Below are positions 1 through 59,241 of a DNA stretch of 64,000 nt, piece after piece. The stretch's first letter is position 1. Each line of letters opens with the position of its first letter. Below the pieces are notes generated by a model. That model was not told the origin of the DNA. It made no database searches and worked only from the letters and a program-made list of their open reading frames with translations. The stretch comes from a virus. The stretch lies in the IMG/VR virus record IMGVR_UViG_3300013723_000002; one strand, 5' to 3'. The translations under genes and the position numbers were made by a program.

Positions 1-258
1 ATTGGCCACTTGATCCCGTAAATGAGCCTCAAAATATTTCTTTGCTGCAGTAACTAGATCCTTTCCATGAGTAATAGGATTGCCGGCCTCATCTACTGGA
101 CTGTCTAATAGACTTGTTACTTCATCCCCTTTAAGAGTGGCCACAACTGGAAAGTTTTTGCCTTTTTGCTTTAAATCCTGAATTGCTATTGCAAGTTTTT
201 CAGCCTGCTCAAGCACATCTTTGGGGTTCTGTGCCTGAACCAAATCTGTAATGCTCAT
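1..258 (-). CDS. hypothetical phage late protein, N-terminal part only (runs off the window start)
   Basis: ATG at 258 on the minus strand, open to position 1 (MSITDLVQAQNPKDVLEQAEKLAIAIQDL...). Late motif at 311-325 with the usual spacing. Confidence 0.5.
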   Translation of the reverse strand, partial: MSITDLVQAQNPKDVLEQAEKLAIAIQDLKQKGKNFPVVATLKGDEVTSLLDSPVDEAGNPITHGKDLVTAAKKYFEAHLRDQVAN

Positions 259-310
259 ATAACACCTGTCATGTATGATCAGATGCAGTCTAAGTTTAAG
301 AAATGGGCCT

Positions 311-325
311 AAATTTTTTTGTTCC
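311..325 (-). promoter_or_regulatory. late-unit motif copy 1 (sense: GGAACAAAAAAATTT)
   Basis: GGAAC plus A-run, 67 nt upstream of the ATG at 258. Confidence 0.5.
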
Positions 326-378
326 AGCTGTCAAAAGTTGAAAGGCTATACTCAAAACTTCATTAAATAAAAATATTT

Positions 379-834
379 TTATTCTCGGCGGTGTATAAAT
401 TCAACTTTTCCATTATGTAGAGTAATACTACCCAAACTTCTATAGTCCCAAGTTTCGCTTATTCCATATTTGCTTTCCGTACTTCTCTTAGAAAAAGGCT
501 TACCCCAAGTAGATTCCAAAAGTTCACTCGCGGTCATACCGACTTTTGGAATTTTTTTATTAAGAAAAGATGAACCTTTATAAGTTCCATCTTTATCAAA
601 TTTTTCAGGATATTTTTGCTTATATGCTTCTATATCAGCCTTTCTATTTTCTACGCCAATTGCTCCACTATAAAGAGAGCGGTCATTATCAGGAATGGTA
701 ATTGTAGTAGTTGATTTTGCAATTTCTTCAGAATGATTAGTTTCTATGGACAGTGGAATGCTTACAATCTCTACTTGTTTTGCATAAGCTGTTGAAGATA
801 TTAAACCTAGTGAAATTAATAAAATTTTATTCAT
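379..834 (-). CDS. secreted protein of unknown function (moron)
   Basis: N-terminal signal peptide (MNKILLISLGLISSTAYA). The C-terminal GMTASELLESTWGKP...ETWDY...GKV pattern resembles a BamE/SmpA_OmlA-like fold. AT-rich insert lying between a terminator and the next late motif. Confidence 0.55.
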   Translation of the reverse strand: MNKILLISLGLISSTAYAKQVEIVSIPLSIETNHSEEIAKSTTTITIPDNDRSLYSGAIGVENRKADIEAYKQKYPEKFDKDGTYKGSSFLNKKIPKVGMTASELLESTWGKPFSKRSTESKYGISETWDYRSLGSITLHNGKVEFIHRRE

Positions 835-903
835 TTAGATATGTCCAAACTAAGGTCTGAATATCTTAGCTTAAATCCACAATTAGAATTCTGTAGATCT
901 ATG

Positions 904-929
904 AAAAAAGGCCCTCAAGGGGCCTTTTT
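904..929 (-). terminator. rho-independent terminator after 931..1701
   Basis: GGCCC-TCAA-GGGGCC hairpin flanked by A- and T-runs. Confidence 0.6.
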
Positions 930-930
930 G

Positions 931-1701
931 TTATGTTGCCATGAGTATGACTTTTTCTTGTACCACCTTAGCGGCGGCCGGTAATAAATAATGTTCCGGA
1001 TCTTCTTCAGCATACCCCAGTGCTTGTGCGATTAGTGCCTGGTCTACTTCTGCCCCATCGATGATAGATTGATAAAATGCGCCAGCTGCATCAATCGGCG
1101 GATCTTCCCTATTATCCTGGGCTTCTGTTTCAAAATCTTCATCTGCCGTTGTACTATCATCATCAATTGCCACACTACTAAATAGATCATTCGGGTTATG
1201 ATGCTTGACCGCTTTATCACCAGTTATAAATAGATCCTGAATATATGCCCACTCAATAAAGGGCCAGATCGCATTTTTAGGCTTGATATAGTCATCAATT
1301 GCCATGCCGCCGTCTTTTTTCTGGATATATAAACCTTCTGCTAAATCAGTAAATAACCGGGCACGAACAAATGGCTGGCCCTTTTCATCATGCAAGTTGG
1401 CATTTAAAGCAAGAAGAATAGGAGTTATTAAGTCAGTCTGGCCCTTATGTTCTGCGACAAAATTATGTAACTGTTTTTCCAGGTCTACATGCGGTTTAAG
1501 TCGTACACCTAAACGGCCCTTTTCCTGGACAATTTCACTTAAAGTTTTGCCTGCAATATCACCACCAGTAAGGTCCTTAATAATTTCATCAATACGGCGT
1601 ACTTTCTCAATACGTTCCATTAATGGCAAGGTACCACCGAGTACCAGGTTAGCTAGGTTGTCCAGTTCCTGAGTCAGTTTTAGCTTAGTAATTAGATCCA
1701 T
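931..1701 (-). CDS. hypothetical virion-associated protein with acidic C-terminal half
   Basis: 256-aa ORF that abuts the stop of 1705..4377. I recognise no family. Confidence 0.55.
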   Translation of the reverse strand: MDLITKLKLTQELDNLANLVLGGTLPLMERIEKVRRIDEIIKDLTGGDIAGKTLSEIVQEKGRLGVRLKPHVDLEKQLHNFVAEHKGQTDLITPILLALNANLHDEKGQPFVRARLFTDLAEGLYIQKKDGGMAIDDYIKPKNAIWPFIEWAYIQDLFITGDKAVKHHNPNDLFSSVAIDDDSTTADEDFETEAQDNREDPPIDAAGAFYQSIIDGAEVDQALIAQALGYAEEDPEHYLLPAAAKVVQEKVILMAT

Positions 1702-1704
1702 GTC

Positions 1705-4377
1705 TTAAACTCCCTGCGCCTTGGCAACTTTAGCTTTAGTTACAGTGTTTAAGGCTTCTTCTAATTTCGCATAAATTGGCTGATCCGGCTCACTGGCATA
1801 TTTTTGGGCTACGTTCATAAAATCGTCCATATTTAACGTGGTCGCATCAATTTCGCCTCCAATAATCTGGTCTAGCCAGGCTTCATCTGGATTCATTTCA
1901 TTACCCTGTATTGGATCTGTTTGTTCGGCTAAAAGCCCATGTTGCTGTAAATAGATTTTGCTCTTTTCCATACGGTCTTGGGTCACACTTAAACCTACAT
2001 CGTCCAGATTGCCGCGTTCAATTTTACCCTGGTAGAGTTCATAAAGTTTTTCATGAGCAAAGTTTATCTCTGCTTCAGATAGTTTCCCTGCATCTTTTAA
2101 TTTGTTGGCCAGTAAATCAATATGACGGTTGGCCAGATCTGCTGGATCTACACTATCTGTTTTATTTAAAAACTTGATCCAGTTTTCTTCGTGGTCGTAA
2201 CGTTCAAAAAGATTCATTTCTTCATTAGCCCGGACTCGCTCCATAGGATTATCAGACAGTGGATTGAGCTTGCCGTTTTCATCCCGTAATTGATCCAGCT
2301 GGGCATTTAAATCTAATTTTTTCTGTTCAGAGGCAAGTTGTTTTTTTGCTTTAATAACTTCAATCGGCTGAGCTTCACGGCCTTGGGCTATATCCGCTGC
2401 GAGCTTTGAATCATAGCTATTCATGGCTTTGATTAGGCCACTTGCAAAGAGTTCAGCTTTACTCATTTTTTCAAGTGTGGCCAGCGCTGCATCATGAGCC
2501 TGTTTAACACTGGCATAGAAGAAAACATCATTGCCCTTTTCATCTTTAGACGGAATAGACAAATGAGATTTTGAATATATGACTTCTAAGCCTTTCGCCG
2601 TACCTTGGAATGAATCAACCACATAGAACGTTTCCCCATGCACCTGGAAAATTAAACGCGGTTCGGCTTCTGTCACCATTTCGCTATATTTCGGATGGCC
2701 AACGATTACTTTACCGGTCGCTTTAAAATGTTCATCTTCTAGCTCATGTAGAACATAGCCTTCCTCTGTTTTCATAGGTATGTAGCTAGAAAGGTTATGT
2801 GTATTCTTAAATCGATTGGTCATCGATAAAACGCTAAAAGGTTTACCCTTGGGCAAAGTCAAAATATTACCGGCCTTGTCGGTCTTAAAGCCTGCTGCTT
2901 TTGCTGCTTCAGCACCAGGACTAACTACCGGATTGTCTTTACGATACTGATTTAAGTATTCAATTCCTTCCTCTTTCCATTCTGCCTGGGTCGTAGAAAT
3001 GCGGTAGGCCCAGCCTTGTGTTACGGCGTAATTGATCGGCTTGTAAACTTCTGGCGTGTTGTACCATAGTCCACCCCCTGTAAACTGCCGTTCCATTTCA
3101 GTTTTACGTCTAAACGCTGTGGCCACCTCTTCAATGGTGTACGCTTCTTTATCAGTTTTATCAGCATCAGGCTCTATTACTGGCTCATTTTCAGGATCTT
3201 GCTGTGCTGGTATTGGTTCTTGGGCAGCTTCTGTTTTTACTTCTGGTGTTATAACTGCTGCACTTAATGGCTGGTCCAGCTGCTCTTGTAGAGCTGCAAT
3301 TTCTTGATCTAACAGCTGCTCTTCCTGGATCTTCGCCTGTTCATCTTTTTCTAGGTCTACCAATACTTGTTCAGCCTGGGCTTTTCTGGCTAGGCCTTTC
3401 ATAAAACGAGCACTATTGCCTTCAACAATAAGCATCATACGCTTGGCCAAGGTTTGAATATTTACGTTTTTACCGCTCTTGGGTTGCAATACTGCAGTTA
3501 CATCACGCTTATTTAATAAAAACTTCCAGCTGGTTAGTGTATCTGTTGCATCAAGACGTTTTGGCGTAGCATCTGGGTTGTGATAAATAATACTGACGCT
3601 CTGGCCATCACTCATGGTAAAAACAGTCGCAATATTGACTACGCCGTTTTTCTTAAATGGATCTGAGGTAGTCACCTCAACCGGCTTCACTTTTTCACCT
3701 GCAGCTTTACCCATAGCCACCAGTACCCGTTTAGAAAGGGCTTCTAATCGGGAATATTGGGAGATAACTGCATCGAAACCTTCTATTTCAGCGCCATCCA
3801 TAACTTCTTGAATAATCGCTTCCGGTTTAACCGGTAATAGCAATTCACGTGATTCATCATAGGTCGAAATATCGCGTATCAAATGTGAAGCGCTTGCATG
3901 TGAAGTGCAATTATTTTCTTCCCATACAACTGGGTTACCGGTAATTTGAGCGCGTAATGTATCAATCTCTTGTTGAGTAATACGCCCCTGGTAATTTTCT
4001 CGTGAAGCATGATTAACCAGGCGCTCTAAAACGAATGTAGGCGCTTCTATTACGTCATAAGCATTAATCTGAGCAATTGCCCCATAATCATAATTAAACA
4101 TCCGTAGCGCGAAATTAGCGGCTTGCTCGTCACTGATTGCACCCAGAACGGCGACTGAGGTTAAAAACACATTGTTCTGGTCCACCAAATTAGTAATACG
4201 CCATGTATCACGTTGGGTATAACCAGGAATTGCGAGTGCTTTAAGGGCAGTATATTGGCCATAAATATACCCAACATCGGCAATACAAATTGCCTCACCT
4301 TTTGAACCATCCTGATTGTTATATGGTCGGCTAGTTCCCTTATAAAAACTCACCGTTAAAATTGAATCATTTTTCAT
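1705..4377 (-). CDS. large (890 aa) phage structural or ejected protein, function unknown
   Basis: Long ORF with a central coiled-coil/Q-E-rich segment and its own late motif. Confidence 0.6.
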   Translation of the reverse strand: MKNDSILTVSFYKGTSRPYNNQDGSKGEAICIADVGYIYGQYTALKALAIPGYTQRDTWRITNLVDQNNVFLTSVAVLGAISDEQAANFALRMFNYDYGAIAQINAYDVIEAPTFVLERLVNHASRENYQGRITQQEIDTLRAQITGNPVVWEENNCTSHASASHLIRDISTYDESRELLLPVKPEAIIQEVMDGAEIEGFDAVISQYSRLEALSKRVLVAMGKAAGEKVKPVEVTTSDPFKKNGVVNIATVFTMSDGQSVSIIYHNPDATPKRLDATDTLTSWKFLLNKRDVTAVLQPKSGKNVNIQTLAKRMMLIVEGNSARFMKGLARKAQAEQVLVDLEKDEQAKIQEEQLLDQEIAALQEQLDQPLSAAVITPEVKTEAAQEPIPAQQDPENEPVIEPDADKTDKEAYTIEEVATAFRRKTEMERQFTGGGLWYNTPEVYKPINYAVTQGWAYRISTTQAEWKEEGIEYLNQYRKDNPVVSPGAEAAKAAGFKTDKAGNILTLPKGKPFSVLSMTNRFKNTHNLSSYIPMKTEEGYVLHELEDEHFKATGKVIVGHPKYSEMVTEAEPRLIFQVHGETFYVVDSFQGTAKGLEVIYSKSHLSIPSKDEKGNDVFFYASVKQAHDAALATLEKMSKAELFASGLIKAMNSYDSKLAADIAQGREAQPIEVIKAKKQLASEQKKLDLNAQLDQLRDENGKLNPLSDNPMERVRANEEMNLFERYDHEENWIKFLNKTDSVDPADLANRHIDLLANKLKDAGKLSEAEINFAHEKLYELYQGKIERGNLDDVGLSVTQDRMEKSKIYLQQHGLLAEQTDPIQGNEMNPDEAWLDQIIGGEIDATTLNMDDFMNVAQKYASEPDQPIYAKLEEALNTVTKAKVAKAQGV

Positions 4378-4430: not shown

Positions 4431-4446
4431 TAAATTTTATTGTTCC
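4431..4446 (-). promoter_or_regulatory. late-unit motif copy 2 (sense: GGAACAATAAAATTTA)
   Basis: GGAAC lies 69 nt upstream of the ATG at 4377, directly downstream of the terminator at 4458-4476. Confidence 0.5.
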
Positions 4447-4481: not shown

Positions 4482-5171
4482 TCACAATGGCATAAACGGT
4501 CGGGCTTGGGAAAAAGTGATTGGAATAGTTAGGGCTGATCCTTCTGACGCTGCCAGTTCTAGTGAGGCTTGGGTCGCCTTAACCAAATATCGGGATTTAA
4601 AAGATGGAGCGGCAAGGCCCTTGTCACGGTTATAAAGCCATAGATCCATCCACATAACATATTCAGCCGGTAATCCATAACTGCCATCTACATGACAAAC
4701 TAGCTGAGCATATTGCATCAAACTGTGAGCCACATAATTATTTTTCGTTTCAATCATTGTTAAAGTAATCTCAGGCGACTGGCTACCTGTGATGTGATTA
4801 GCGTTGTAATGGCCCATGCGTTTACTATCAGTATCAAACTGAAGTAATGGCACAGATAGCTCGGTAGCTAACCAAGGCATAAGATTATTAGTAACAAGTT
4901 CTAAATTGCGGGTTGCATTATTTCTGTAAGCTGAAAACTGCACTAAATAAAAGGATTTATGCTGAATACCCAATTTATAAAGATCTCGATATAGACCCAC
5001 AAATCTATCTCTAGGCATACCGCCCCAATTTAGGTTTACTGGTCCATTTCCTGTAGCCGTGGTACCAAGATCAAGGCCTCCCATATTAGGCAATCGGTCA
5101 CTGATAAAACCTTTCGCAGCTGTTTTAGCTTTACCGGCCGCTTTTTGTTTAAGCTGATTTATGTCGAGCAT
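4482..5171 (-). CDS. hypothetical virion structural protein (229 aa)
   Basis: Start overlaps the stop of the upstream gene (TAATG), which suggests translational coupling. Confidence 0.55.
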   Translation of the reverse strand: MLDINQLKQKAAGKAKTAAKGFISDRLPNMGGLDLGTTATGNGPVNLNWGGMPRDRFVGLYRDLYKLGIQHKSFYLVQFSAYRNNATRNLELVTNNLMPWLATELSVPLLQFDTDSKRMGHYNANHITGSQSPEITLTMIETKNNYVAHSLMQYAQLVCHVDGSYGLPAEYVMWMDLWLYNRDKGLAAPSFKSRYLVKATQASLELAASEGSALTIPITFSQARPFMPL

Positions 5172-6778
5172 TAGTAATCCTCTTCATTATCATTGAAACC
5201 TGTGCCATTAGCTGCTGGCTCTTCATAATCACCAGGATTATCCTCACCAGATAAATCAGTCTGCGGCTTACCCTTTTCTAAAGCATTCACATAGATCTCG
5301 GCCTCTTCATCATCACAACCGCCGATTTTAGTAAGTACAGTAAAGTTACTTTCTCTGTCCAGATTAAGTTCTTTAAGCGTACCCAATGCACTACCAAACA
5401 TGGCCATTGTATTGGATCTCGTTTGCTTGTTTGTCAGTGCTTCAGTTGAGGCCGCTGAAATATCAGAATAAAACTCGAATTGCCAAGGCAGATCTTGAGG
5501 ATCAAACATATAGCCGTATTTATAGCCAATATGAACATTGGCAATATGATTAAAGGCTTTCGTTGTTGCGGCACGAACATGAACGGAGCGTTGGGCAACT
5601 TGCGCCGATGTATGAAAAAAACCACCATCACCAAGACCACCAGACAATTGTTCAGCCCATCCCAAAAGTGATAAGTCTGTACCCAGTGCCCCTGCCATAC
5701 GGCGAACATTGATCATGAGCGGTTCAGGATTCACTGGTGCGGATCTGCGACTCATATCACCAATTGCATTAAGCACTTGCTTGTCACCCCACACGGGTAA
5801 AATATGCCAGGCTTTAGACCAAATCGCGTCCCCACCTTTTAAGGCATCCCGGACATTGTTTTTATGGGATTGCAACATTTGAGTGAGGCCGGCTTTATAT
5901 TTTTTCCGTTGTTCTGGCGGCATACCCGATACGTCAAATGTTAAAAATGCTTGCTCTACACTATCTGCAATCTGTTGTGAGTTTAATGCTTGTAGCAGCA
6001 GCTGAACGTTTGCCCAAGGTTCTTCGGCGTCATACAGAATAGATCCGCCAATCTCACTGGCCACAATCGGAAGTTTATTAATATCATTCTCAGACAGCAT
6101 ATTTTTATGCAAATACGGATTAATTGAGAATTGCGGCACTGGTGTGTAACGTGGCATTTTCATACGTGCCATCTGAAAAGTAGTGAGCTTGGTGAGCTTT
6201 CGCATTTCCAGATCATTTTTTTCTAAAATATGATAACCAATTGTTCGCCCGCCCTGCTCATAAGACTGAATTAACGGCGGTTCAGTATATTCATTACAAA
6301 TAAGCTGCAGCAGTCCTGCACCTTTGGCCCCATACATACGCACATAACTATCGCCGTAAGATACGCCGTAACGTGCCATTGGGAATGCAATTTCATTGAA
6401 AAGCGGCATCAATAGCCGGGCTTCTCTCTCAACCAACTGTCTTAAATGTCGTGCTCGTTTTCCGCCATTCCTTAGTTTTTGAGAAGGTGTCATAAAAACC
6501 ACATCACCACGGGATTCATGGCCCCCTAAAGCTGCTGTGGTCTGCAAGTTAAGAGCAGCTGCAATGGTCGGATCATGTTGCATTACCGCCCACGTGGTAT
6601 AGATCGTTTTACGGTCACGTTTGCGAAGTTCGCTGTTTTCATAGGTGCCCAGTGAAAACATTTCAAAATTATCGTACCGGCTATCTACTTCACCGATATT
6701 GGCCTGTATTTGTCCGGCAGATGCCGCACGTTCGGCATGAATAAACTGGCCCAAGAAATTACCAAATAACGATTTCAT
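5171..6778 (-). CDS. putative portal protein (535 aa)
   Basis: Size, acidic C-terminal tail and position at the head of a structural unit. The family was not verified. Confidence 0.4.
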   Translation of the reverse strand: MKSLFGNFLGQFIHAERAASAGQIQANIGEVDSRYDNFEMFSLGTYENSELRKRDRKTIYTTWAVMQHDPTIAAALNLQTTAALGGHESRGDVVFMTPSQKLRNGGKRARHLRQLVEREARLLMPLFNEIAFPMARYGVSYGDSYVRMYGAKGAGLLQLICNEYTEPPLIQSYEQGGRTIGYHILEKNDLEMRKLTKLTTFQMARMKMPRYTPVPQFSINPYLHKNMLSENDINKLPIVASEIGGSILYDAEEPWANVQLLLQALNSQQIADSVEQAFLTFDVSGMPPEQRKKYKAGLTQMLQSHKNNVRDALKGGDAIWSKAWHILPVWGDKQVLNAIGDMSRRSAPVNPEPLMINVRRMAGALGTDLSLLGWAEQLSGGLGDGGFFHTSAQVAQRSVHVRAATTKAFNHIANVHIGYKYGYMFDPQDLPWQFEFYSDISAASTEALTNKQTRSNTMAMFGSALGTLKELNLDRESNFTVLTKIGGCDDEEAEIYVNALEKGKPQTDLSGEDNPGDYEEPAANGTGFNDNEEDY

Positions 6779-6875: not shown

Positions 6876-7044
6876 AGATTATTTGATTTAAATTATTTTG
6901 CTTTATGCAGATCTATCATAAAAATATTCACTTTCAGCAATAAATTATGCAAAAAAAGCGGATTTTCTTGCAGTTTTTATTAGTTTTTGATGAAGAAAAT
7001 TGAAAAATAAAAACAGGTGATTTGATCTGTCTTGATTAAAGAAT

Positions 7045-7069
7045 AAAAAGCGCCTAGAAGGCGCTTTTT
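7045..7069. terminator. bidirectional terminator downstream of the ADH gene
   Basis: AAAAAGCGCC-TAGA-AGGCGCTTTTT perfect hairpin with an A-run and a T-run. Confidence 0.7.
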
Positions 7070-7084
7070 ATTCTTTAAGTAAAT

Positions 7085-8248
7085 TTACGGCGTTAGAATG
7101 ACTTTACGACAGTCTTCTTCCTTTTTATCAAAAATACGGTAACCTTCCGCAGCATCTTCCAGTTTCATGCGATGGGTAATAATCACATCCGGAGACAGAT
7201 CTCCATTTTCGATATGTTCGAGTAACTGCGGCAAGTATTTATGCACATGGGTTTGTCCCATTTTAAAAGTTAAACCTTTGTCAAAGGCATCACCAAACAG
7301 AAAGCCATGAATTGGACCGGCATAAATCCCAGGTACACTCACCACACCGCCGCGTCGGACTGCTGCAATACATTGTCTTAGTGCTGAACCACTCGAACCT
7401 TCTAATTTCAGGTTGGTCATTACTGTTTCCAGAACACTCCCTTTGGCTTCGAAACCAACGGCATCAATAACTGCATCAACACCACGATAACCTGCTGTAT
7501 TTTGAATAATAAATTCAGCTGCATCGACTTCATCAAAGTTGACCGGAATGACCCCATAGGTTTGATGAGCAAATTGCAAGCGATAAGGGTGATGGTCGAC
7601 CATGAAGATCTGTTCGGCACCGAGCATCCGTGCACAAGCGGCAGCCATCAGACCGACTGGACCAGCACCATAAATTGCCACTGTAGAACCACGGGTGACT
7701 TGAGCATTGGTTACTGCCTGCCAGGCTGTTGGCAGAATATCGGTCAGGAATAATACTTTTTCATCAGGCAAGGAGCCGGGAACCTTAAACGGTCCGACAT
7801 TGCCTTTGGGAATCCGCACATATTCGGCCTGACCACCCGGAACACCACCAAACAGGTGGCTAAAGCCAAACAAGGCCGCTCCTGGTGGAATCTGTTTTTT
7901 ATTGAGAATTGCACCACGACCCGTATTGGTATTTTCACAGGCAGCCATCAGTTCATGTTCACAGAAAAAACAGTGACCGCATGCAATGACAAAGGGAATG
8001 ATCACCCGGTCACCTTTTTTGACTTCTGTCACTGCAGGGCCGACTTCTTCTACAACTCCCATAAATTCATGGCCGAAAATATCACCGTCTTCAGTGGCCG
8101 GGATTTTACCCCGGTATAGATGTAGGTCTGAGCCACAGATGGCAGTGGCTGTCACCCTTAAAATAACGTCATCTGGTTCCTGAATCACTGGATCTGGAAC
8201 AGATTCAACTCGTACATCCCGAGCACCATGATAGGTAAGAGCACGCAT
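7085..8248 (-). CDS. Zn-dependent alcohol dehydrogenase, glutathione-independent formaldehyde dehydrogenase-like
   Basis: Catalytic-zinc motif ICGSDLH and GHEFMG. Structural-zinc cysteines [15 protein letters not shown]. Rossmann GAGPVG. Confidence 0.85.
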
Positions 8249-8449
8249 GCGGATTTCCTCTCTAGTTCAACATAAATAGTCTCAAATAAGGCTGCTGATT
8301 ATTAATAAGCCTTTTTATTAGAGCCTTATAACCTGACCTAGAGCTGTAAATTAATGTATGAAATAAGGGAGCCGAGTGTTTAAAAAATAAATTTATATAG
8401 TACTTGCGTAATTCACTAAAAAATATGTCAAAAATCGAGTAAATGATTA

Positions 8450-9307: not shown

Positions 9308-9315
9308 TAGTTTTT

Positions 9316-10518: not shown

Positions 10519-10519
10519 A

Positions 10520-49757: not shown

Positions 49758-49759
49758 TT

Positions 49760-50563: not shown

Positions 50564-51226
50564 ATGTTCCGCACATACCCGCCTTTGGCCTCATTAAAGG
50601 AAAGATTATCTTTTCTTTTTGAAAATGATCCGCGCTCACAATCTGTAATTGCGAAGCAAGCTGGAATTAGTCAACCATCATTTAGCGACTTATTAACCGG
50701 TAGAACGTCTACGTCTAAACACTTAGAAAAGATTGCTGAGGCTTTTGATGCAGATTATCAATGGGTACTTACTGGCATTCCTTCTGAGGATGCTGTGAGC
50801 GTACCCGTGGTAAATGTTCCTCTACTTGAAAACTATAAGGATTATTTAAATACACGTGCAAAAAATAAGACTCTTCCAGCGTCTGAAACTGCACCGCTTG
50901 ATATTAAAGCCTTTACACGGCGTAAGGTTGACATTGCTGGCGCTCGATATGTACCTATGCCAGACACAGGTATGGAGCCTCAGATCAGTGAGAATGCCAT
51001 GGTGTTTTTTGATAGTTCTAAACAGCTCATTGAAGATAAAACAACGTATGTAATGAATCACGGCGGTATATTGTTAGTACGCCAGCTGTTTAACCTGCCA
51101 ATGGGCGGCGTTCGTATTAACGCTTTTAATTCAGATTTTGACGATATAAATTTGTCGTATGAAGAAATTGAGAAACAGGCCTTTTCTGTCATCGGTAAAG
51201 TTTTTGCTGTAGTTAATTTTTACTAA
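50564..51226 (+). CDS. cI: CI-like repressor (XRE HTH plus S24 peptidase-like C-domain)
   Basis: N-terminal QSVIAKQAGISQPSFSDLLTGRTS HTH. The C-terminal LexA/CI-like fold has DTGMEP where GDSMEP is expected. Confidence 0.65.
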   Translation: MFRTYPPLASLKERLSFLFENDPRSQSVIAKQAGISQPSFSDLLTGRTSTSKHLEKIAEAFDADYQWVLTGIPSEDAVSVPVVNVPLLENYKDYLNTRAKNKTLPASETAPLDIKAFTRRKVDIAGARYVPMPDTGMEPQISENAMVFFDSSKQLIEDKTTYVMNHGGILLVRQLFNLPMGGVRINAFNSDFDDINLSYEEIEKQAFSVIGKVFAVVNFY

Positions 51227-51326: not shown

Positions 51327-52066
51327 TTAAGGCTCTAGACTAGCAGATTTACACTTAATTTTACCTAATGAGGTTCCACAGCTCAGTTGCTAACTCATTA
51401 GGTTCCCTCATCCAACGCCATTCAGTTTCTTTAAGATGATAATCAAAGTACTCTTTTGATATGCCGTTAAACTTTGCTAGCCTTCTTTTACAAAAGCTCC
51501 AAAATGATTCTATTCCATTTATATGACATTCTCCTCTAGCAAACTCATTTGCTCCGTGATTTACCCTAAAATGCTTTGAATAACCCACATCAACAAGACC
51601 ATTATAGCCACGCCATCCATCACTATAAATCACACTCTCAAGTGAAACTTTACCAATGATAACCTCTTGTAAAGTCTTCATTTTACAGTCAGGTACGATT
51701 TCAGTATAGACGCGCCCATTACGTTCGAATATTCCAAATACTGGCTGTTTTAGAGTCCCACGACCACGCTTTAACTTTCCATGAAACCCACGTTGCCTTT
51801 TCGCTCCAAAATAGCTTTCATCTACTTCTATTGAACCAACAAACTTAGCTCTTAAATCTGTTTGATGATCATAGATAGTTTCTCTAAAAAGCATGTACCA
51901 ATAGTTAATCGTATTACGATTTAAATTGAGTAATAAGGCTGTTTTGGAAGCAGGAATATCAACACAAAAGCATTGAATAATTTTTTTAATCTTGTAGTGA
52001 CTTAATTTACTGTTTTCTATCATGATTCTAGACTAACATAATCATTTTGCTAGTCTAGAGCCTTAT
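51327..52066 (-). mobile_element. IS1595-family insertion sequence (~740 bp)
   Basis: Perfect 19-bp terminal inverted repeats TTAAGGCTCTAGACTAGCA. TTATTAA is present on both flanks; the exact ends are ambiguous by 4 nt. Confidence 0.75.
51361..52023 (-). CDS. tnp: IS1595-family DDE transposase (220 aa)
   Basis: EVDESYFG...GRGT..KQPVFGI.ER.GRVY...SDGWRGY...H.INGIESFWSF.KRRL motifs. Confidence 0.8.
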   Translation of the reverse strand: MIENSKLSHYKIKKIIQCFCVDIPASKTALLLNLNRNTINYWYMLFRETIYDHQTDLRAKFVGSIEVDESYFGAKRQRGFHGKLKRGRGTLKQPVFGIFERNGRVYTEIVPDCKMKTLQEVIIGKVSLESVIYSDGWRGYNGLVDVGYSKHFRVNHGANEFARGECHINGIESFWSFCKRRLAKFNGISKEYFDYHLKETEWRWMREPNELATELWNLIR

Positions 52067-52627: not shown

Positions 52628-53452
52628 ATGACTCAAGCAGCAAACATTAAACAGTTCCCCCGTAATCAACAACAGGTAGAACAATCACAACCTATGGCAC
52701 AAATTGGCCAGGTTTATCAGTGTAAAGCAAATATGCAAAGTGAAATTTCACAAGGCGGGCTAGGGAAGTGCCAAGAAGCTATAGATTGGAAAGGTGATGT
52801 ACTTTATAAATTTCGGGGTATTGATGATATTCAAAATCTGCTAGCGCCTCTACTCAGCAAGCATAACCTTGATATAACCCCAATATGTCGAGAAATGATC
52901 TTAAAAGAACAAGTAGTGAAAGATAAACTTTTGTTCGCTTGTACAGTTAAGGTGGATTATATCTTTACTTGTACAACTGATGGATCTCAGCTGATCGCGA
53001 CCATGTATGGCCAAGCTAACGACTATGGTGATAAAGCAATATCTAAGGCTATGTCGATGGCTTACAAATACATGGCTATTCAGGCCCTTTGTATTCCAGT
53101 ACAAGGTGAAGATCCAGATGCTTTCGTACATGAGCCAATTAACCCGAATCAGCGCCAAGTAATAAATCATTCAAACAACCACGCCCAGCAGCACCAGAAT
53201 GGCCAGCAAAGCCGTAATAACGCCCAGCAGCACCAGAATGGCCAGCAAAGCCGTAATAACGCCCAACAGCACCAGAATGGCCAGCAGCAGCCGGCTACGA
53301 TTAATAAACAGCAAGAGCAGCAACTATTGGAACTGATGCACAAAAGCAACTACGACCCTAATCGTCTGCTTCAAAAGTACCAGTTAAACAATTTAAGCCA
53401 GATCACAGTACGAGCATTCAACGAGCTATGTACACGCTTGGCAAATTTCTAA
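52628..53452 (+). CDS. erf: ERF-family single-strand annealing recombinase
   Basis: YKFRGIDDIQNLLAPLLSKHNL and GDKAISKAMSMAYKYMAIQALCIPVQGEDPD resemble the P22 Erf core. Q/N-rich repeat tail. Confidence 0.7.
   Translation: MTQAANIKQFPRNQQQVEQSQPMAQIGQVYQCKANMQSEISQGGLGKCQEAIDWKGDVLYKFRGIDDIQNLLAPLLSKHNLDITPICREMILKEQVVKDKLLFACTVKVDYIFTCTTDGSQLIATMYGQANDYGDKAISKAMSMAYKYMAIQALCIPVQGEDPDAFVHEPINPNQRQVINHSNNHAQQHQNGQQSRNNAQQHQNGQQSRNNAQQHQNGQQQPATINKQQEQQLLELMHKSNYDPNRLLQKYQLNNLSQITVRAFNELCTRLANF
53174..53290 (+). repeat. 39-bp tandem repeat, about 3 copies, encoding NNAQQHQNGQQSR
   Basis: Direct reading: aacgcccagcagcaccagaatggccagcaaagccgtaat repeated. Confidence 0.85.
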
Positions 53453-54244: not shown

Positions 54245-55732
54245 TTATCGATAATTAGGGAGATAATCTAACAGATCCGGGAATAAGGACAAGTCACCTG
54301 CTAACCGCTGTAATAAATTTTGTTTTACCTGGGCCGGATCAGTCATACCAATAGGCGCATATTTACTTAAAAAGCCCGCATTTTTAACCAATTCCTCACG
54401 ATCTAATTGTGGTAAGAAGCTAAGTGTATGCCCTGGTGTTTCATTCTTCTTATGAACAATCCGATGTTGCAGCTTTTGTTCTATCATGTTTTTAGCCATA
54501 TCATGGCCAACTAAGGTTTTCCATCTGTCATATTCCGGATGACGAATAATTAGATCATTTGGGATCTCTTTCATGTTGTAAATATAAAAGCCAGGCAAAT
54601 GCAGCTTTGAAAGAATAAAATCTATATCCCAATTCCCGTTTTCATCGGGTAGCGCTGACAGTGTATTGCCATCCCCCCGGATAGCCTTTTTAACTTCGCT
54701 AATTTCTTTAAACTCTGCATCTTCAGGTTCAACCTCTGTATCGTCGTAGCGCAAAGAGGTTCCAGTAGCGCCAAGTGAGTCTAATCGTTCCTCTTCAGTA
54801 GGTGCCTGATTAATATTTTGCGGCGGTATAGGTGGCGGTAGATCCGCTTCATCTATCGGCAAGTGTCCATTACCACTTTCAAGAGATTCAGCTGCTTCCT
54901 GGCTAATGCTAACCTTCTGCTTAACAGTAAATTGATAGCCGCTCAAAATACGGCCCTTACTATTCGGATTAGTAATGTACTGGGCTTCAAAATCAATAAT
55001 TAGATCTGTTTCACGGGCAATAGTTTTGACTGTAGTTTTTAATAACCGTCCAAAATTGCTTGTCGTGGCAAATTGCTTGTCATCAAAAATTCCTAAAGCC
55101 TGGCGCAAGTTTTCCTTTTTCATCTGGAAAACACCCTTATTTTTCCAGGCTACGGCCAGCTCATACATACGAAATTCATAAGGGTTATTTAAGTTACCCA
55201 GGTTCCGGATTTCATAGGTTGAGTAATTGCCTTCCAGGTACTGCAAGAACGGGATAATTTGTGGCGAGAAATAAACCTGGATCAATGCCTCGCCTTCCAC
55301 ATAGCTGCACATCGTTGTCCAGCTTAAATCGTTCAGGCGCTTACTTACTTTAGTTGCGCCCTGGTAATCGTCAATCCAGCTGATTGTCCGTTTACGCAAA
55401 CTCTGAGCTGCTTCAGCTAAAACGCCGTAAGCATTCTGTTTAGTGGTTTTAAAGAAATTAGCATAAGTATTTGCATGAATCGTTACCGGTTCCAATGGGC
55501 TAAACTCAACCTTGGTCTGGTCACGGCGCATAATGACAATAGCCAAGGCAATGATACGCATTTCAGTGAGTGATAGCTCATAAGCTGCGGAAATTAAGCT
55601 ATTGTGCTTAAAGATTTTTTCATAACCCTGTACTTGGTATTCTTGCGGGTCAAGACTCTGCATATACGCCAATGAAGAAAGGTTAGGATCAAATGGCTTT
55701 TTTTCAGCTTCTATTTTAGAGGTTTTAGGCAT
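54245..55732 (-). CDS. rep: Rep_3-family plasmid replication initiator with a long C-terminal extension (495 aa)
   Basis: KHNSLISAAYELSLTEMRIIALAI is a Rep_3 hallmark. An adjacent iteron array is present. Confidence 0.8.
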   Translation of the reverse strand: MPKTSKIEAEKKPFDPNLSSLAYMQSLDPQEYQVQGYEKIFKHNSLISAAYELSLTEMRIIALAIVIMRRDQTKVEFSPLEPVTIHANTYANFFKTTKQNAYGVLAEAAQSLRKRTISWIDDYQGATKVSKRLNDLSWTTMCSYVEGEALIQVYFSPQIIPFLQYLEGNYSTYEIRNLGNLNNPYEFRMYELAVAWKNKGVFQMKKENLRQALGIFDDKQFATTSNFGRLLKTTVKTIARETDLIIDFEAQYITNPNSKGRILSGYQFTVKQKVSISQEAAESLESGNGHLPIDEADLPPPIPPQNINQAPTEEERLDSLGATGTSLRYDDTEVEPEDAEFKEISEVKKAIRGDGNTLSALPDENGNWDIDFILSKLHLPGFYIYNMKEIPNDLIIRHPEYDRWKTLVGHDMAKNMIEQKLQHRIVHKKNETPGHTLSFLPQLDREELVKNAGFLSKYAPIGMTDPAQVKQNLLQRLAGDLSLFPDLLDYLPNYR

Positions 55733-55805: not shown

Positions 55806-55948
55806 CCTATAATTTTATAGTCTAAATATAGGTGAATATAAGATAAACAGAGTAAACTAGCTGAAAAAACCCTAAAACCATGTAAGTTACTTGATCTTAT
55901 CTATTTTTTTATAAGTAAATTTCATATTTTGCCTATATATTTATAGCC
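55806..55948. promoter_or_regulatory. operator palindromes upstream of rep (CCTATAATTTTATAGT at 55806-55821 and GCCTATATATTTATAGCC at 55931-55948)
   Basis: The 55806 site is identical to the core at 42191-42206. A partial iteron, CTTGATTCAAACTA, lies at 55762-55775. Confidence 0.5.
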
Positions 55949-56432
55949 TAATAAATTAATTTTATAGGTTTTGATTGCTTATTTTGCATTCAACTTGTTC
56001 ATTTTTTATATATTTTTCAGTGGTTAATAAAAAAACAATAAATTAATTTAATTAAGTAATTGTTTTTTAGTATTTAATTTTTTGACGTGTAAGTTACTTG
56101 ATTCAAACTAGGCGCATGTAAGTTACTTGATCTGAACTCTTTTTACCCATGTAAGTTACTTGATTCAAACTAGGTACTTTCATGTAAGTTACTTGATTCT
56201 TTCATACTAAATATTTGTTTTTAATAATAAAAAATATCGTCATGTAAGTTACTTGATTCAAACTAAAGCTATTTTTGGCTAAACAATATACTTTTTACAG
56301 TATAAGTTTTTGTTTTATATAAATATTTAAGTAAAAAACCATACTGAGTGTTTTTTAAGCATGTAAGTTACTTGATTCAAACTATGTAAGTTACTTGATT
56401 TAAACTAGGTACTTTCATGTAAGTTACTTGAT
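55881..56432 (+). repeat. oriV iteron array: nine direct copies of TGTAAGTTACTTGAT(TCAAACTA)
   Basis: Cores start at 55881, 56088, 56117, 56150, 56183, 56243, 56362, 56385 and 56418. An AT-rich block at 55950-56080 lies inside the array. Confidence 0.85.
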
Positions 56433-56847
56433 TCACACAAAGCTGGAAAGCCTTGCTACATAAGGCTTTGCCGGGAGCGGAAAAGATATAGTTTAAAAAG
56501 ATATATCTATATAAGATATAGACTCATTACTGATTCATTACCACGGTAAATAATCATTCATAAAAAATGCTACGCATTTTTTATTCATTTACGAAGTTTA
56601 TTTAAAGAAAAAAGACTTAGCTGGCTACGCCAGCTAAGTTTTATCTTTTTAAATTTTTAAATTTTTGTTTTTGTACGATTACATTAAGGACTTCACGACC
56701 AGATCTATAACTTGGATATTCGGTTATTAATTTAAACATCTTGGGATACTTTGATAACTAATAAATCATTTCACCTATAAAAATAGAGTGAATAGCCTAA
56801 GCCTATTATTTGTCCAGTAAGGCAATATTTAAATAAAATCTCTTGAA

Positions 56848-56943: not shown

Positions 56944-57606
56944 ATGAGTACAGAAAAGAAAAATACAAAATTTATCACTTTGGCCCAGCTCAAGGGTGGA
57001 GTAGGTAAAAGTACCCTGGCTGTCCACATTGCAGGTTTTCTGGCAAACAATGGTCATACTGTCGCGTTACTTGATAGCGATAGCCCACAATATACATCAA
57101 CAAACTGGTACAACATTGGACCAGAAAAAACCAATATTGATCTTGGCCAAGTATCTACTGCTGAAGAGTTAATAGCTGCAGTAAACCACTATGAAGGTAA
57201 AGTGGATTTTGTAGTAACGGATCTCGCGCCACGTTTGGAAGAAATTACAAAAGTCGGTTTGGCCATATCTGATTTTGCCGTAGTACCGGTCAATATGGAT
57301 CTCGTTGAAATATGGGCCTTGGATATTATGCGCGGCCTACTGGTCAAGGCTGCTGAAGATGTGCCCCATTTTAACTATCGTGTCCTGGCCAACAAATTTA
57401 AAACGAATGATCCTGACCACCAGGAACGTTATGAATTGATTAAGTCTGAATTTGGACTTGAACTGTTTGAAACTAAGATTGGCCAGCGTAAAGCTGTTCG
57501 CCAGATGCTTGAACAGGGTAAGACTGTTTTTGAGTCGAAAAACTCTATTGCTAAGAATGAGTTTATGTCCCTGATCAACGAAATTAAAACTATATTGGAA
57601 ATCTAA
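56944..57606 (+). CDS. parA: ParA-family partition ATPase
   Basis: Deviant Walker A, LKGGVGKST. 220 aa. Confidence 0.85.
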   Translation: MSTEKKNTKFITLAQLKGGVGKSTLAVHIAGFLANNGHTVALLDSDSPQYTSTNWYNIGPEKTNIDLGQVSTAEELIAAVNHYEGKVDFVVTDLAPRLEEITKVGLAISDFAVVPVNMDLVEIWALDIMRGLLVKAAEDVPHFNYRVLANKFKTNDPDHQERYELIKSEFGLELFETKIGQRKAVRQMLEQGKTVFESKNSIAKNEFMSLINEIKTILEI

Positions 57607-57608
57607 AC

Positions 57609-57866
57609 ATGAGTATCAAAACACCATCATCACGTGCTGCAGCTGCCCAGTCATTTCTTAAAGAAACAGAACAGCCAGCCCAGGTAATCGAAGTTGAAGA
57701 GGAAAAAAAGCGAATTAATGCCTGGATCGCTATTAGTTTGCATAAGGCTATTAAATCTCATATTCCACATGATGAAGATTTTGACTCTATCACGGATCTG
57801 GTAGAGCACTTGCTAGAAAAGTATGCAATAGAGAAAGGGATCTATACCAAGAAAAAGACCCGATAA
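57609..57866 (+). CDS. small ribbon-helix-helix (ParG-like) partition adaptor
   Basis: 85 aa directly after parA. KRINAWIAISLHKAIK is an RHH beta-strand/helix pattern. Confidence 0.55.
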   Translation: MSIKTPSSRAAAAQSFLKETEQPAQVIEVEEEKKRINAWIAISLHKAIKSHIPHDEDFDSITDLVEHLLEKYAIEKGIYTKKKTR

Positions 57867-57872
57867 TTTTCT

Positions 57873-58571
57873 ATGAAAAAAGCCATAGGTTATGTGCGTG
57901 TTAGTACCGATAAGCAGGCGACTGAAGGCGTATCTATTGAAGCTCAAATAGAGAAGATTAAGGCCTGGGCAATATTCAATGAATATGAGCTGCTGCATAT
58001 CTATAACGATGAAGGTATTTCTGGTGCCTCATTGAATAAACGTGACGGAATGCAGCAAGCCTTATCACAAGTTAAAAAAGGCATGGCTTTTGTTTGCTAT
58101 AGCTTGAGCCGTGTTAGCCGTGATCTTGCTGATACCCTGCACATTAGCCGTACTATTGAAAAAGCTGGCGCGGATCTGGTAAGCCTGAGTGAAAAAATTG
58201 ATACTACAGGCGCCTCCGGAAAAATGGTTTTTAATATGTTCGCCGTACTCAATCAGTTTGAGCGTGACCAGACGGCGGAACGTACCAGATCTGCAATGCA
58301 ATATAAAAAAAAGAATGACCAGGCTTATAGTCCTACACCTTATGGCTATGATCGCCAGGATAAAGAGCTGGTATTAAATCCGATAGAGGCGGCCGTAGTC
58401 GTGGCCATTCAGGATATGGCCCAGGAAGGCAAAGGTTATGCCGAAATAGCCAGGCATTTAAATCAAAATAATATACCGACCAAGACAGGTAAACTGTGGA
58501 GGGCCAATACTGTTTTTTATCTGCTGCAAAGAACAAAAATTACTGCTGATATGCTGACGTCCTTGGAATAA
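57873..58571 (+). CDS. serine recombinase (resolvase/invertase family)
   Basis: MKKAIGYVRVSTDKQ catalytic-serine motif and a C-terminal HTH (GYAEIARHLNQNNIPTKTG). Confidence 0.85.
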   Translation: MKKAIGYVRVSTDKQATEGVSIEAQIEKIKAWAIFNEYELLHIYNDEGISGASLNKRDGMQQALSQVKKGMAFVCYSLSRVSRDLADTLHISRTIEKAGADLVSLSEKIDTTGASGKMVFNMFAVLNQFERDQTAERTRSAMQYKKKNDQAYSPTPYGYDRQDKELVLNPIEAAVVVAIQDMAQEGKGYAEIARHLNQNNIPTKTGKLWRANTVFYLLQRTKITADMLTSLE

Positions 58572-58656
58572 TGAAAAATAGAATCAAAGGTTCGTGTTGA
58601 GTTTTTTCTGTTGAAACAAAACTGGCTTTATTTTTAATATTAAATACGATATATTG

Positions 58657-58680
58657 AATTGTACAGGATTCTGTACAATT
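58657..58680 (+). promoter_or_regulatory. yefM-yoeB operator palindrome
   Basis: AATTGTACA-GGATTC-TGTACAATT. TGTACA cores are known from YefM-YoeB operators. Confidence 0.6.
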
Positions 58681-58703
58681 GATATTTTTAGCTGGGATGA
58701 ACC

Positions 58704-58967
58704 ATGCAAGTATTCACATATTCAGATGCGCGTAACAATCTAAAGACTGTTTTGGATCGTGTTATTGATGATGCAGACGTGGCTATGATTACTCGTAAAG
58801 AAGGACAACACGCGGTTGTAATGGGTCAAGATCATTACAACAGTTTAATGGAAACTTTGCACCTAATGTCATCACCAAGTAATGCAGCACGTTTAGCAAA
58901 ATCTATCGCAGAGTTACGAGCATCTAAAGCAGTCGAAAGAGAACTTTTAGATGAAGCGCAAGACTAG
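58704..58967 (+). CDS. yefM: YefM/Phd-family antitoxin
   Basis: MQVFTYSDARNNLKTVLDRVIDDADVAMITRK... is a typical YefM N-terminus. Confidence 0.9.
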   Translation: MQVFTYSDARNNLKTVLDRVIDDADVAMITRKEGQHAVVMGQDHYNSLMETLHLMSSPSNAARLAKSIAELRASKAVERELLDEAQD

Positions 58968-59214
58968 TTTTACTCCAACCGCCTGGGAAGATTATTTGTA
59001 TTGGCAAGGCCAGGACAAAAAGACCTTAAAACGGATTAATGCCTTGGTAAAAGATTGCCTACGGGAACCATTTGAAGGAATCGGAAAACCTGAACCACTA
59101 CTTGGAGATCTGGCCGGGTTTTGGAGTAGACGTATAGATGAGCAACATCGATTAGTTTACGAAGTCACTGATGCCGCTATTACTATCGTGGCATGTCGTT
59201 ATCACTACCAGTAG
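58951..59214 (+). CDS. yoeB: YoeB/Txe-family toxin (ribosome-dependent mRNA interferase)
   Basis: FTPTAWEDYLYWQ...GIGKPEPL...WSRRIDEQHRLVY...ACRYHY. Overlaps yefM by 17 nt. Confidence 0.9.
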   Translation: MKRKTSFTPTAWEDYLYWQGQDKKTLKRINALVKDCLREPFEGIGKPEPLLGDLAGFWSRRIDEQHRLVYEVTDAAITIVACRYHYQ

Positions 59215-59241
59215 AAAAAGGCCCTCTATAGAGGGCTTCTT
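59215..59241. terminator. terminator between yoeB and the convergent gene
   Basis: AAGGCCCTCTA-TAGAGGGCTT. Confidence 0.6.

Follow-up and report, generated by a model that had tools for sequence, protein, structure and literature searches.

A probable phage-plasmid lineage of Acinetobacter combining a P1-type virion module with a replicon, immunity region and late-promoter motif of its own

Phage-plasmids are a recognised and numerous class of elements. In the group of coliphage P1, the published weighted gene repertoire relatedness (wGRR) is about 0.75 for members of one subgroup and 0.23 for members of different subgroups (PMC7969092). The only well-defined Acinetobacter type in the tyPPing typing paper is the siphovirus-type AB group (PMC12977533), the members of which (AB_1) are related to SSU5, measure 101-122 kb and carry recA/recF and ParB (PMC7969092, PMC12977533). 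Among Acinetobacter phages, vB_AbaM_ABMM1 (ABMM1 below) is a plaque-forming temperate myovirus with a tyrosine integrase and was reported to integrate (PMC10345192). In this work, a stretch of 64 kb (the window; GC about 42%) of the IMG/VR virus record IMGVR_UViG_3300013723_000002 was analysed, and the element to which it belongs was compared with these systems. From the sequence comparisons we consider it probable (about 0.85) that the element is a circular extrachromosomal prophage, i.e., a phage-plasmid, of about 75.8 kb from an Acinetobacter host and of an undescribed lineage, in which a P1-type virion module is joined to its own replicon, partition, immunity and late transcription. No paper was found that names this lineage, or the records CP110255, CP016898, CP029389 and CP032280, as phage-plasmids, the supplements of the two key phage-plasmid papers being covered in part. 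Although the class is well known, the group to which the element belongs is new and uncharacterised.

The element is larger than the window. Two overlapping loci (L007 and L012) of contig JANRFT010000015.1 overlap both window ends at 100% and 99.99% identity and bridge them with 11,812 bp, which gives a circle of 75,812 bp composed of the window and a near-identical contig of another assembly. Both ends of that contig lie inside the insertion sequence (IS) ISAcra1, a copy of which is spanned by the window. The initial annotation had bounded the element at 1-59241 and seen no integrase. These bounds have to be given up, as the whole window belongs to the element, which extends beyond it at both ends. 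The absence of an integrase holds: none was found in the bridging 11.8 kb, and neither an integrase nor a protelomerase in the 75,812-bp circle, in which every open reading frame (ORF) of at least 380 aa was assigned. Furthermore, searches for identical proteins located the genes of the element on separate contigs of 70.5-75.2 kb in several isolate assemblies and JGI metagenomes, and a 70,991-bp UViG of IMG/VR carries an identical capsid protein. The contigs with the initiator gene (Rep) or a 151-aa ORF of the element (46 and 114 collection blocks) are all at most 200 kb long, and a closed relative with the same layout exists. As far as these assemblies go, the element is an extrachromosomal circular replicon without an integration module. 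Plasmid replication and partition genes are on the same replicon as a full set of virion, packaging and lysis genes, provided that the window is taken together with the closing 11.8 kb. The complete virion module of the initial annotation is thus present in the element, but not in the window, outside which the holin, endolysin, DarB-like and PmgB-like genes are located. The other genes that it had named were recovered, the Rep_3 initiator with nine iterons, ParA with a small partner, serine recombinase and YefM-YoeB by Pfam and repeat analysis, and the CI/Cro, ERF, RuvC-like, terminase, baseplate, sheath, fibre and spanin genes by Pfam, PHROGs and a lipobox scan. By coordinate arithmetic, another contig (L003; GCA_040067275.1, JBEACJ010000005.1, 143,868 bp) holds about 75.2 kb of the element at one end, followed by ISAcra1 and about 68 kb of unrelated genes (GGDEF, ABC transporter, AraC, MFS, DAHP synthase).

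At least 13 proteins of the element are related to proteins of P1 by shared PHROG families or BLAST. The BLAST comparison linked ten P1 proteins to the element: PacB, the large terminase (35% identity over the full length, E 1e-80), Prt (26% identity), Pro (33%), gp25 (36%), BplA (26%), DarA (32%), DdrB (45%), PmgB (28%), DarB (E 4e-8) and Hdf (E 4e-4). When the P1 proteins were scanned against PHROGs, gp23, gp22, gp21, gp6, BplB, Tub, Pro and, weakly, PmgA shared families with proteins of the window; gp23, gp22 and gp21 match phrog_1014, phrog_1036 and phrog_1053, as do the capsid, sheath and gp21-like proteins described below. P1-type morphogenesis, packaging and Dar proteins are therefore all represented, and PacA and Sit of P1 were unmatched among the proteins of the element. 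The local gene order of P1 is retained in the blocks 23-22-21, pmgA-bplA and 6-5. In addition to these genes, the element resembles P1 in its lifestyle as a plasmid prophage, with replication under the control of iterons, active partition, toxin-antitoxin genes and a site-specific recombinase, as well as in the antirestriction set DarA, Hdf, DdrB and DarB and in the dispersal of the late genes over many short operons that have a late promoter each. The late genes had been called scrambled relative to the P2, lambda and T4 canons. The fibre genes do lie directly after the large terminase gene and the portal gene downstream of the spike gene; however, this is no oddity of the lineage. Because the virion genes are homologous to those of P1 and blocks of P1 are kept, the order is largely an inherited P1-type organisation that was further rearranged.

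On the other hand, the identities between these proteins and those of P1 are only 23-45%, and the wGRR to P1, a proxy from our own ORF calls and BLASTP and not from the published pipeline or tyPPing profiles (as are all wGRR values below), was 0.016, with 10 reciprocal best hits, five of which have at least 50% coverage. The high wGRR to P1 or D6 that belongs to the P1 group was not found. RepA, ParA/ParB, Cre and Phd-Doc of P1 had no BLASTP match at E below 1e-3, so that none of the P1 plasmid modules (RepA/incA-incC, ParA-ParB-parS, Cre-lox, Phd-Doc) was recognised. Analogous unrelated genes fill these roles, i.e., Rep_3, a small ParA with an 85-aa partner, a serine recombinase and YefM-YoeB, together with CI/Cro in immunity. 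No homologue of C1/Coi/Ant, RepL, Lpa or PacA was found, and the immunity and late control of P1 (C1/Coi/Ant, Lpa and late promoters with a -22 box) are not those of the element. It is also smaller (75.8 kb versus 94.8 kb), has no tRNA genes (none in a scan of the window) and no visible invertible fibre segment. Judged from these comparisons, its virion, packaging and Dar genes are distant homologues of P1 genes, and the element stands outside the P1 group. The earlier view that it is not a simple relative of P1 is correct for the wGRR proxy and for the plasmid, immunity and late-promoter parts, but it misses that the virion module is P1-type. The same view with regard to N15 and SSU5 can be kept as it was, given the circular map, the absence of a protelomerase and the gene set of a contractile tail. 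Instead of the linear map, hairpin ends and protelomerase of the N15 type, a circular map was obtained, and no N15-like record was among the portal matches. The AB group shares the host genus and the category of lifestyle with the element, which is only 75.8 kb long and has contractile tail, sheath and baseplate genes. The portal search gave nine Acinetobacter records in PLSDB, with none of 101-122 kb among the matches listed, and the AB group was set apart by size, gene set and these matches, not by a direct wGRR against an AB member. The element is unrelated to N15, SSU5 and the AB siphovirus groups.

Megablast of the window against INPHARED and PLSDB gave matches to cargo and IS only, and no close whole-element relative. 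The portal protein matched four closed Acinetobacter plasmids (71-83 kb), further plasmids from Pseudomonas, Burkholderia and Vibrio, chromosomal regions of A. baumannii that resemble ABMM1, and the phages ABMM1, Xanthomonas Rb1, P1, P7 and D6, and a search of genome contigs with the capsid protein had a single match, an A. chengduensis contig (55% identity). The closest relative is plasmid unnamed1 of A. oleivorans S4 (NZ_CP110255.1), a closed circle of 82,563 bp annotated only as a plasmid. Across both its phage and its plasmid modules, the genes stand in the order found in the element; there are 53 reciprocal best hits, and the wGRR proxy is 0.28. The plasmid differs in that its proteins are about 24-80% identical, in that it is without a 376-aa gene of the element (16105-17235) and in its cargo, which consists of copper/heavy-metal resistance genes and genes resembling effectors of a type VI secretion system. 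The plasmid pGFJ2 of A. soli (NZ_CP016898, 78,649 bp, closed) is a phage-plasmid with 30 reciprocal best hits and a wGRR proxy of 0.11, which has the virion module, ParA, ERF and a CI-like repressor in common with the element; it carries another replication initiator, a cargo of lasso-peptide and methyltransferase genes, and no GGAAC late motif above chance. For ABMM1 (OQ471969, 75.7 kb), the wGRR proxy was also 0.11 with 31 reciprocal best hits, including the terminase, capsid, sheath, tube, baseplate, portal, DarA-like and Sit-like genes and a pair of a helix-turn-helix (HTH) and a 292-aa protein, whereas no counterpart of the Rep_3, ParA or serine-recombinase genes was among them. The 31 hits cover the virion module, so that the plaques formed by ABMM1 speak for the functionality of a virion of this type. 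The plasmid pGFJ2, the A. chengduensis contig and the integrative phage ABMM1 are more distant relatives of the lineage.

The late transcription of the element appears to follow a signal of its own. The word GGAACAAWAAAA is the most over-represented one outside the iterons, and the pattern GGAAC[AGT]AWWAAA has 13 matches versus 0.14 expected in shuffles, which is an enrichment of about 90-fold. Copies are located upstream of late operons on the transcribed strand, about 33 nt before a -10-like hexamer, with the exception of one within an ORF at 40339. On the minus strand they start at 325, 4435 (4435-4446), 6848, 12577, 16063, 17302, 22140, 25756, 31682, 34040, 34682, which is upstream of the spanin gene, and 44603; further copies are at 68562 of the circle (minus strand) and 63741 (plus strand). 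When looser copies upstream of three further operons are counted, 14 late sites are listed. Directly before seven of these 14 sites, folding of the upstream 50 nt gave a hairpin and T-run terminator, in agreement with the motif and terminator pairs by which the initial annotation had seen the late genes insulated. Scans for generic signals showed no enrichment of sigma-70 promoter-like sites; for terminator-like sites, the first 20 kb showed none either, and the second 20 kb only a modest one. The A. oleivorans plasmid has 11 copies of the motif, all on the late-gene strand and several just upstream of late genes, while no copy was found in P1 and a single one, as expected by chance, in pGFJ2. 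Where the late promoters of P1 have the -22 box CAAGTGACT, the element has GGAACAAWAAAA; the P1 box is not used, and its variants AAGTGACTT/AAGTTACTT occur only within the iterons and at two non-promoter sites. The first candidate for an activator of the GGAAC late regulon would be a pair of genes at 45444-47005, which encode a 228-aa HTH protein and a 292-aa protein and to which we return below. The core of the iterons contains AAGTTACTT, which is the -22 box variant of the P1 late promoters LPs, LPdar and LPhot. As a late promoter of the element, AAGTTACTT was rejected since it is part of the iterons, and, given this position, the identity with the -22 box is most likely a coincidence.

The immunity region contains a gene for a CI-like repressor with HTH and S24 domains (50564-51226, plus strand; Pfam Peptidase_S24/HTH_3), the HTH of which is 434-repressor-like, and a divergent Cro-like gene (49942-50346, minus strand; Pfam P22_Cro/HTH_3). 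The 217-bp spacer between the two genes is rich in CTATA/TATAG repeats. In a MAFFT alignment with LexA, lambda CI and UmuD, which comprised few sequences, the catalytic columns of the S24 domain have Gly in place of Ser and Arg in place of Lys. The same columns read Gly/Arg in the A. oleivorans plasmid and Ala/Arg in pGFJ2, and the integrative ABMM1 keeps GDSM...K. The Ser-Lys dyad of self-cleaving repressors of the LexA/CI type is therefore provisionally absent, and self-cleavage of CI was probably lost in the plasmid-borne forms, as far as this provisional alignment indicates. If the alignment holds, CI lacks its catalytic Ser and Lys, so that induction would not proceed via RecA-stimulated self-cleavage. 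Downstream of cro, the early operon (44949-49942, minus strand) consists chiefly of small ORFs of no known family. It includes the conserved pair mentioned above, i.e., the 228-aa HTH protein (46319-47005) and the 292-aa protein (45444-46322), both on the minus strand (PHROGs 7396 and 7533; Pfam HTH_3), which has orthologues in the A. oleivorans plasmid, pGFJ2 and ABMM1. Two recombination genes were recognised, one for an ERF single-strand annealing protein (52628-53452, plus strand; Pfam ERF, E 1.3e-10), which is also kept in the A. oleivorans plasmid and pGFJ2, and one for a RuvC-like Holliday-junction resolvase (38300-38758, minus strand; phrog_1770, E 8.6e-26).

Several of these observations weigh against an intact extrachromosomal prophage. 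The circle is a composite of the window and a contig of another assembly rather than one closed record, the wGRR values are proxies, and the join in L003 could be an IS-mediated cointegrate or an assembly join through ISAcra1. Recognisable lytic replication genes were not found in the scans of the element proteins, nor was a homologue of the late activator Lpa. The apparent loss of the CI dyad seems to leave the element with no evident route of induction, and there are three IS-related insertions in the element, though all of them are intergenic. An alternative is that it is a defective or domesticated phage-derived plasmid, which replicates and segregates and no longer yields infectious particles. 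The three insertions, the apparent loss of the catalytic residues of CI and the absence of an identifiable lytic replication or late-activator gene would fit such a plasmid. However, the virion, packaging and lysis ORFs are all full length and align end to end with their counterparts in the A. oleivorans plasmid and ABMM1, and the insertions are intergenic with a clean target duplication. Moreover, about 14 operons retain the late motif upstream, and its enrichment is as strong in a relative whose proteins are only about 50% identical; near-identical copies that differ in cargo were found in many samples, as would be expected after recent horizontal spread. A defective plasmid is thus unlikely, and an element with the capacities of a phage-plasmid remains the preferred reading.

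The plasmid functions of this phage-plasmid are grouped next to its immunity region. The Rep_3-family initiator (495 aa; 54245-55732, minus strand; Pfam Rep3_N, E 2.9e-27) is recognised by Pfam solely in its WH1 domain (residues 40-193), and phmmer searches of the PDB matched it to pPS10 RepA and F RepE. A length of 495 aa is unusual for Rep, and ordinary Acinetobacter RepM proteins match its first ~290-370 residues only. In tblastn against the 72,556 records of PLSDB, the only full-length match was NZ_CP110255.1 (38% identity), i.e., the A. oleivorans plasmid, which is also the only PLSDB match for the long C-terminal part. A spacer of 26% GC between rep and parA contains nine iterons ATGTAAGTTACTTGATTCAAACTA of 24 bp in one orientation (55880-56441, plus strand), which are presumed to be the plasmid origin and copy-control array, and no DnaA box was found at this origin within one mismatch. 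A winged-helix initiator beside direct iterons in an AT-rich origin is what is seen in an iteron-controlled Rep_3 replicon. The partition operon (56944-57866, plus strand) encodes a ParA ATPase of 220 aa (56944-57606; Pfam ParA/CbiA/MipZ/VirC1) and the 85-aa partner (57609-57866), presumably the centromere-binding protein. The partner had neither a Pfam family match nor a PDB sequence match; a single-sequence AlphaFold model is all-helical (pLDDT 73) and had no Foldseek match in the PDB, so that a ribbon-helix-helix fold, as proposed earlier, is neither confirmed nor refuted. Only 6 bp past the partition genes follows the gene of a small serine recombinase of 232 aa (57873-58571, plus strand; Pfam Resolvase, E 6e-40), which is 29% identical to P1 Cin and is presumed to act as a multimer resolvase. 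The YefM antitoxin (58704-58967, plus strand; Pfam PhdYeFM_antitox, E 1e-18) and the YoeB toxin (58951-59214, plus strand; Pfam YoeB_toxin, E 2e-40) complete this region.

Given that IS elements and cargo common to ordinary plasmids border this region, the element might be a recent cointegrate, or an assembly chimera, of an Acinetobacter plasmid of the Rep_3 type and a phage like ABMM1. Joins through an IS do occur, as seen in L003, and the initiator of pGFJ2 is a different one. However, in the A. oleivorans plasmid the order CI-ERF-Rep-iterons-ParA-partner-recombinase-toxin-antitoxin lies between the same phage genes at 27-80% identity (Rep 39%, ParA 46%, the ParA partner 27%, the recombinase 69% and YefM/YoeB 80%), with the recombinase at the same position and at least nine diverged iterons (CATGTAAATGA...) between rep and parA. 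The backbone is in the same order and has diverged as far as the virion genes have, so that its linkage to them must be old, which speaks against a recent cointegrate. The restriction of the full-length Rep match to that plasmid and the recurrence of the junctions in several independent assemblies point in the same direction, and we regard such a fusion as very improbable. The tyrosine integrase of the related ABMM1 and the ABMM1-like regions in A. baumannii chromosomes might suggest an ordinary integrated prophage, of which the integrase and att sites lie beyond the window. This is hardly conceivable when the 11.8 kb of phage DNA between the window ends encode no integrase, no contig above 200 kb carries the element, the Rep, iteron, partition, resolution and toxin-antitoxin genes are on it, and a closed circular relative exists.

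We hypothesize that the phage-plasmid alternates between two states. During lysogeny, Rep would bind the iterons, fire the origin and limit the copy number by handcuffing; ParA and its partner would segregate the copies, the recombinase would resolve dimers, and the toxin-antitoxin pairs would kill plasmid-free segregants, while CI would repress the leftward cro/early operon. After derepression, ERF, the RuvC-like resolvase and a weak VRR-NUC-like relative would probably support recombination-dependent replication. An early activator product would then switch on the about 14 GGAACAAWAAAA late promoters, many of which lie directly behind the terminator of the preceding operon. The PacB-like terminase would package headfuls from concatemers, the Dar proteins would be loaded into the heads and would guard the incoming DNA from restriction, and the holin, GH19 endolysin and spanins would lyse the cell. 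In the next host, the incoming terminally redundant DNA would be recircularised by ERF/host recombination or by the serine recombinase and re-established as a plasmid.

It may be that the element is the first recognised member of a P1-superfamily branch in Acinetobacter, undescribed and roughly of genus to family level, in which one virion module is combined with interchangeable modes of lysogeny (the Rep_3 plasmid, the replicon of pGFJ2 or the integrase of ABMM1), with a dead S24 repressor in the plasmid-borne members and with one sub-branch that uses its own late code, GGAACAAWAAAA, without Lpa. We hold this proposal tentatively, at somewhat less than even odds. If true, it would mean that the shift from integrative to plasmid lysogeny went along with a rewiring of both induction and late gene control. 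The phage-plasmid itself would extend P1-type phage-plasmids to Acinetobacter, and several database "plasmids" of 71-83 kb would be prophages of this kind; its closed relatives were deposited as plain plasmids with mostly hypothetical proteins. It would also offer a natural case of module exchange, with one virion module and three solutions for lysogeny, in which the apparent loss of the repressor dyad correlates with the plasmid forms, and a new late-promoter code besides. Furthermore, because it combines a headful-type terminase like that of P1 with a life among Acinetobacter resistance plasmids, the element may mobilise DNA and could be a generalised transducer. The IS elements and cargo that it acquires are 99-100% identical to ones on Acinetobacter plasmids, and it may move genes between strains, which would matter for the traffic of resistance genes in Acinetobacter.

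From 379 to 50346, nearly every gene is on the minus strand, including the virion genes that follow unless noted. The block for head maturation and packaging (30031-33971) starts with the Pro-like gene (33102-33971; PHROGs 4727/1801), followed by a 287-aa ORF of no known function (32235-33098; phrog_4333), a small-terminase candidate (31691-32290; phrog_4179) and the PacB-like large terminase (30031-31614; PHROGs 5902/2). Directly after the latter are two paralogous tail-fibre genes (27889-29979 and 25763-27868; phrog_4545 and tail-fibre PHROGs), and then a 551-aa protein with Ig domains (24034-25689; Pfam Big_6). The P1-type core block (17358-23847) comprises the gp25-like gene (22693-23847; phrog_1722), a 187-aa ORF (22146-22709), the gp23-like major capsid gene (20266-22071; phrog_1014), a 204-aa ORF, the gp22-like sheath gene (467 aa; 18193-19596; phrog_1036) and the gp21-like gene (17358-18179; phrog_1053). 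In the P1-type sheath profile, the sheath protein covers positions 93-531 only; the remaining N-terminal ~95 residues of the profile are matched by the N-terminus of a separate protein, the 376-aa product of 16105-17235 (minus strand). A 220-aa paralogue of the latter should share that N-terminus, going by the 341-bp repeat described at the end.

The baseplate and tail block (9316-15993; PHROGs 1620, 4683/1896, 1369, 1120, 1390 and 11) contains the Hdf-like gene (15364-15993), the PmgA-like gene (14652-15080), the gene of a BplA-like baseplate protein (13217-14668) followed by a 201-aa ORF, the BplB-like gene (11878-12507) followed by a 146-aa ORF, the gp6-like gene (10520-11416) and the gene of a spike with collagen-like repeats (9316-10518; Pfam Collagen). 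The Gly-X-Y repeats of the spike are encoded by DNA with a period of 36 bp (9692-9963), and its length varies among copies, from 400 aa in the window to 387 aa in the 71-kb variants (L008-L010). Downstream of the spike lie the Prt-like portal gene (5171-6778; phrog_1497) and the Tub-like tail tube gene (4482-5171; PHROGs 7274/24337/1842). An assignment of 4482-5171 as the Pro protease was rejected, as PHROGs 24337 and 1842 are common with P1 Tub and the Pro homologue is at 33102-33971. The next genes encode an 890-aa protein with a DarA_N domain (1705-4377; Pfam DarA_N, PHROGs 8883/1926) and two products of no known family (931-1701 and 379-834), in an operon that runs off the window into the gene of a 2184-aa DdrB/DarB-like polyvalent protein with LPD3, ddrB-ParB, InPase and ResIII domains (Pfam).

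This 2184-aa protein is encoded in the bridging 11.8 kb, which also contains four late genes of no known family, one of them PmgB-like, two late genes on the plus strand, and a holin-sized ORF with a GH19 endolysin gene (65085-66244 of the circle). Between the DarB-like gene and the next late operon is a second toxin-antitoxin-like pair, a RelE-like protein of 107 aa and an Xre/MqsA-like protein of 104 aa (4088-4851 of L012, about 68.6-69.4 kb of the circle), in place of which the 71-kb variants have a single gene of 266 aa. A 738-aa protein (42317-44533, minus strand) has its best match in phrog_6922 (E 4.5e-183), with weaker matches to endolysins and tail-associated lysins, and pairs with proteins of pGFJ2 and ABMM1 that are annotated as "tail tip lysozyme"; it is a candidate tape measure or injection protein and as such a putative counterpart of P1 Sit. 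A candidate i-spanin of 182 aa (34094-34642, minus strand) contains an embedded ORF for a 78-aa o-spanin lipoprotein with an LTGC lipobox (34147-34383, minus strand; lipobox scan), and the two would fit an Rz/Rz1-type spanin pair. They lie about 31 kb from the holin-endolysin pair, i.e., the lysis genes are divided over two late operons.

Most of the cargo and insertions are 95-100% identical to sequences of Acinetobacter, Moraxella or Psychrobacter plasmids, and all recognised insertions are intergenic. ISAcra1 of the IS1595 family (51331-52062, minus strand; 99.7-100% identity; Pfam DDE_Tnp_IS1595) lies between the CI and ERF genes with a target duplication of TTATTAA on either side, and is absent from other copies of the element, L001 among them. 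Between the spike and portal genes, a cargo at 6981-9309 (minus strand) consists of a Zn-dependent alcohol dehydrogenase gene (7085-8248) and ISAba31 (transposase 8483-9229), is 99% identical to Acinetobacter plasmids and is absent in the 71-kb variants. An island of low GC (0.28-0.34) on the plus strand (34751-37369) encodes a 426-aa HNH endonuclease (Pfam HNH_5, E 4.5e-13) and a 283-aa ORF of no known function; it is probably accessory cargo, and an HNH homologue follows YoeB in the A. oleivorans plasmid. An accessory region at 60152-63677 is composed of a DUF4145 protein gene (60152-60892), an IS5-family element (about 60970-61832), a gene of the acetoacetate-decarboxylase family (61966-62784) and a Rep3_C fragment (63151-63546). 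It has megablast matches in Acinetobacter, Moraxella and Psychrobacter plasmids, and an 88-bp repeat of an IS end flanks the accessory unit (61745-61832 and 63590-63677). The unit of Rep3_C fragment and acetoacetate-decarboxylase gene also occurs, with an intact or partial IS5, on another Acinetobacter contig (L013) and on chromosome-sized contigs (L015 and L016), and the Rep3_C/acetoacetate-decarboxylase/IS5 unit thus behaves as mobile cargo. PADLOC made no defence-system assignment among ten accessory or unassigned ORFs, which included the HNH island and DUF4145.

The element also contains an inverted repeat of 341 bp with 95% identity, the arms of which are at 16975-17314 and at about 63728-64068 of the circle. 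Each arm comprises a copy of the late-promoter motif and about 80 codons from the start of a gene, namely the 376-aa ORF at 16105-17235 (minus strand) and the 220-aa late ORF from 63808 (plus strand), which runs off the window. Recombination between the two arms would invert about 46 kb and exchange the C-terminal parts of both predicted proteins. By coordinate arithmetic, some of the JGI contigs appear to begin near this repeat.

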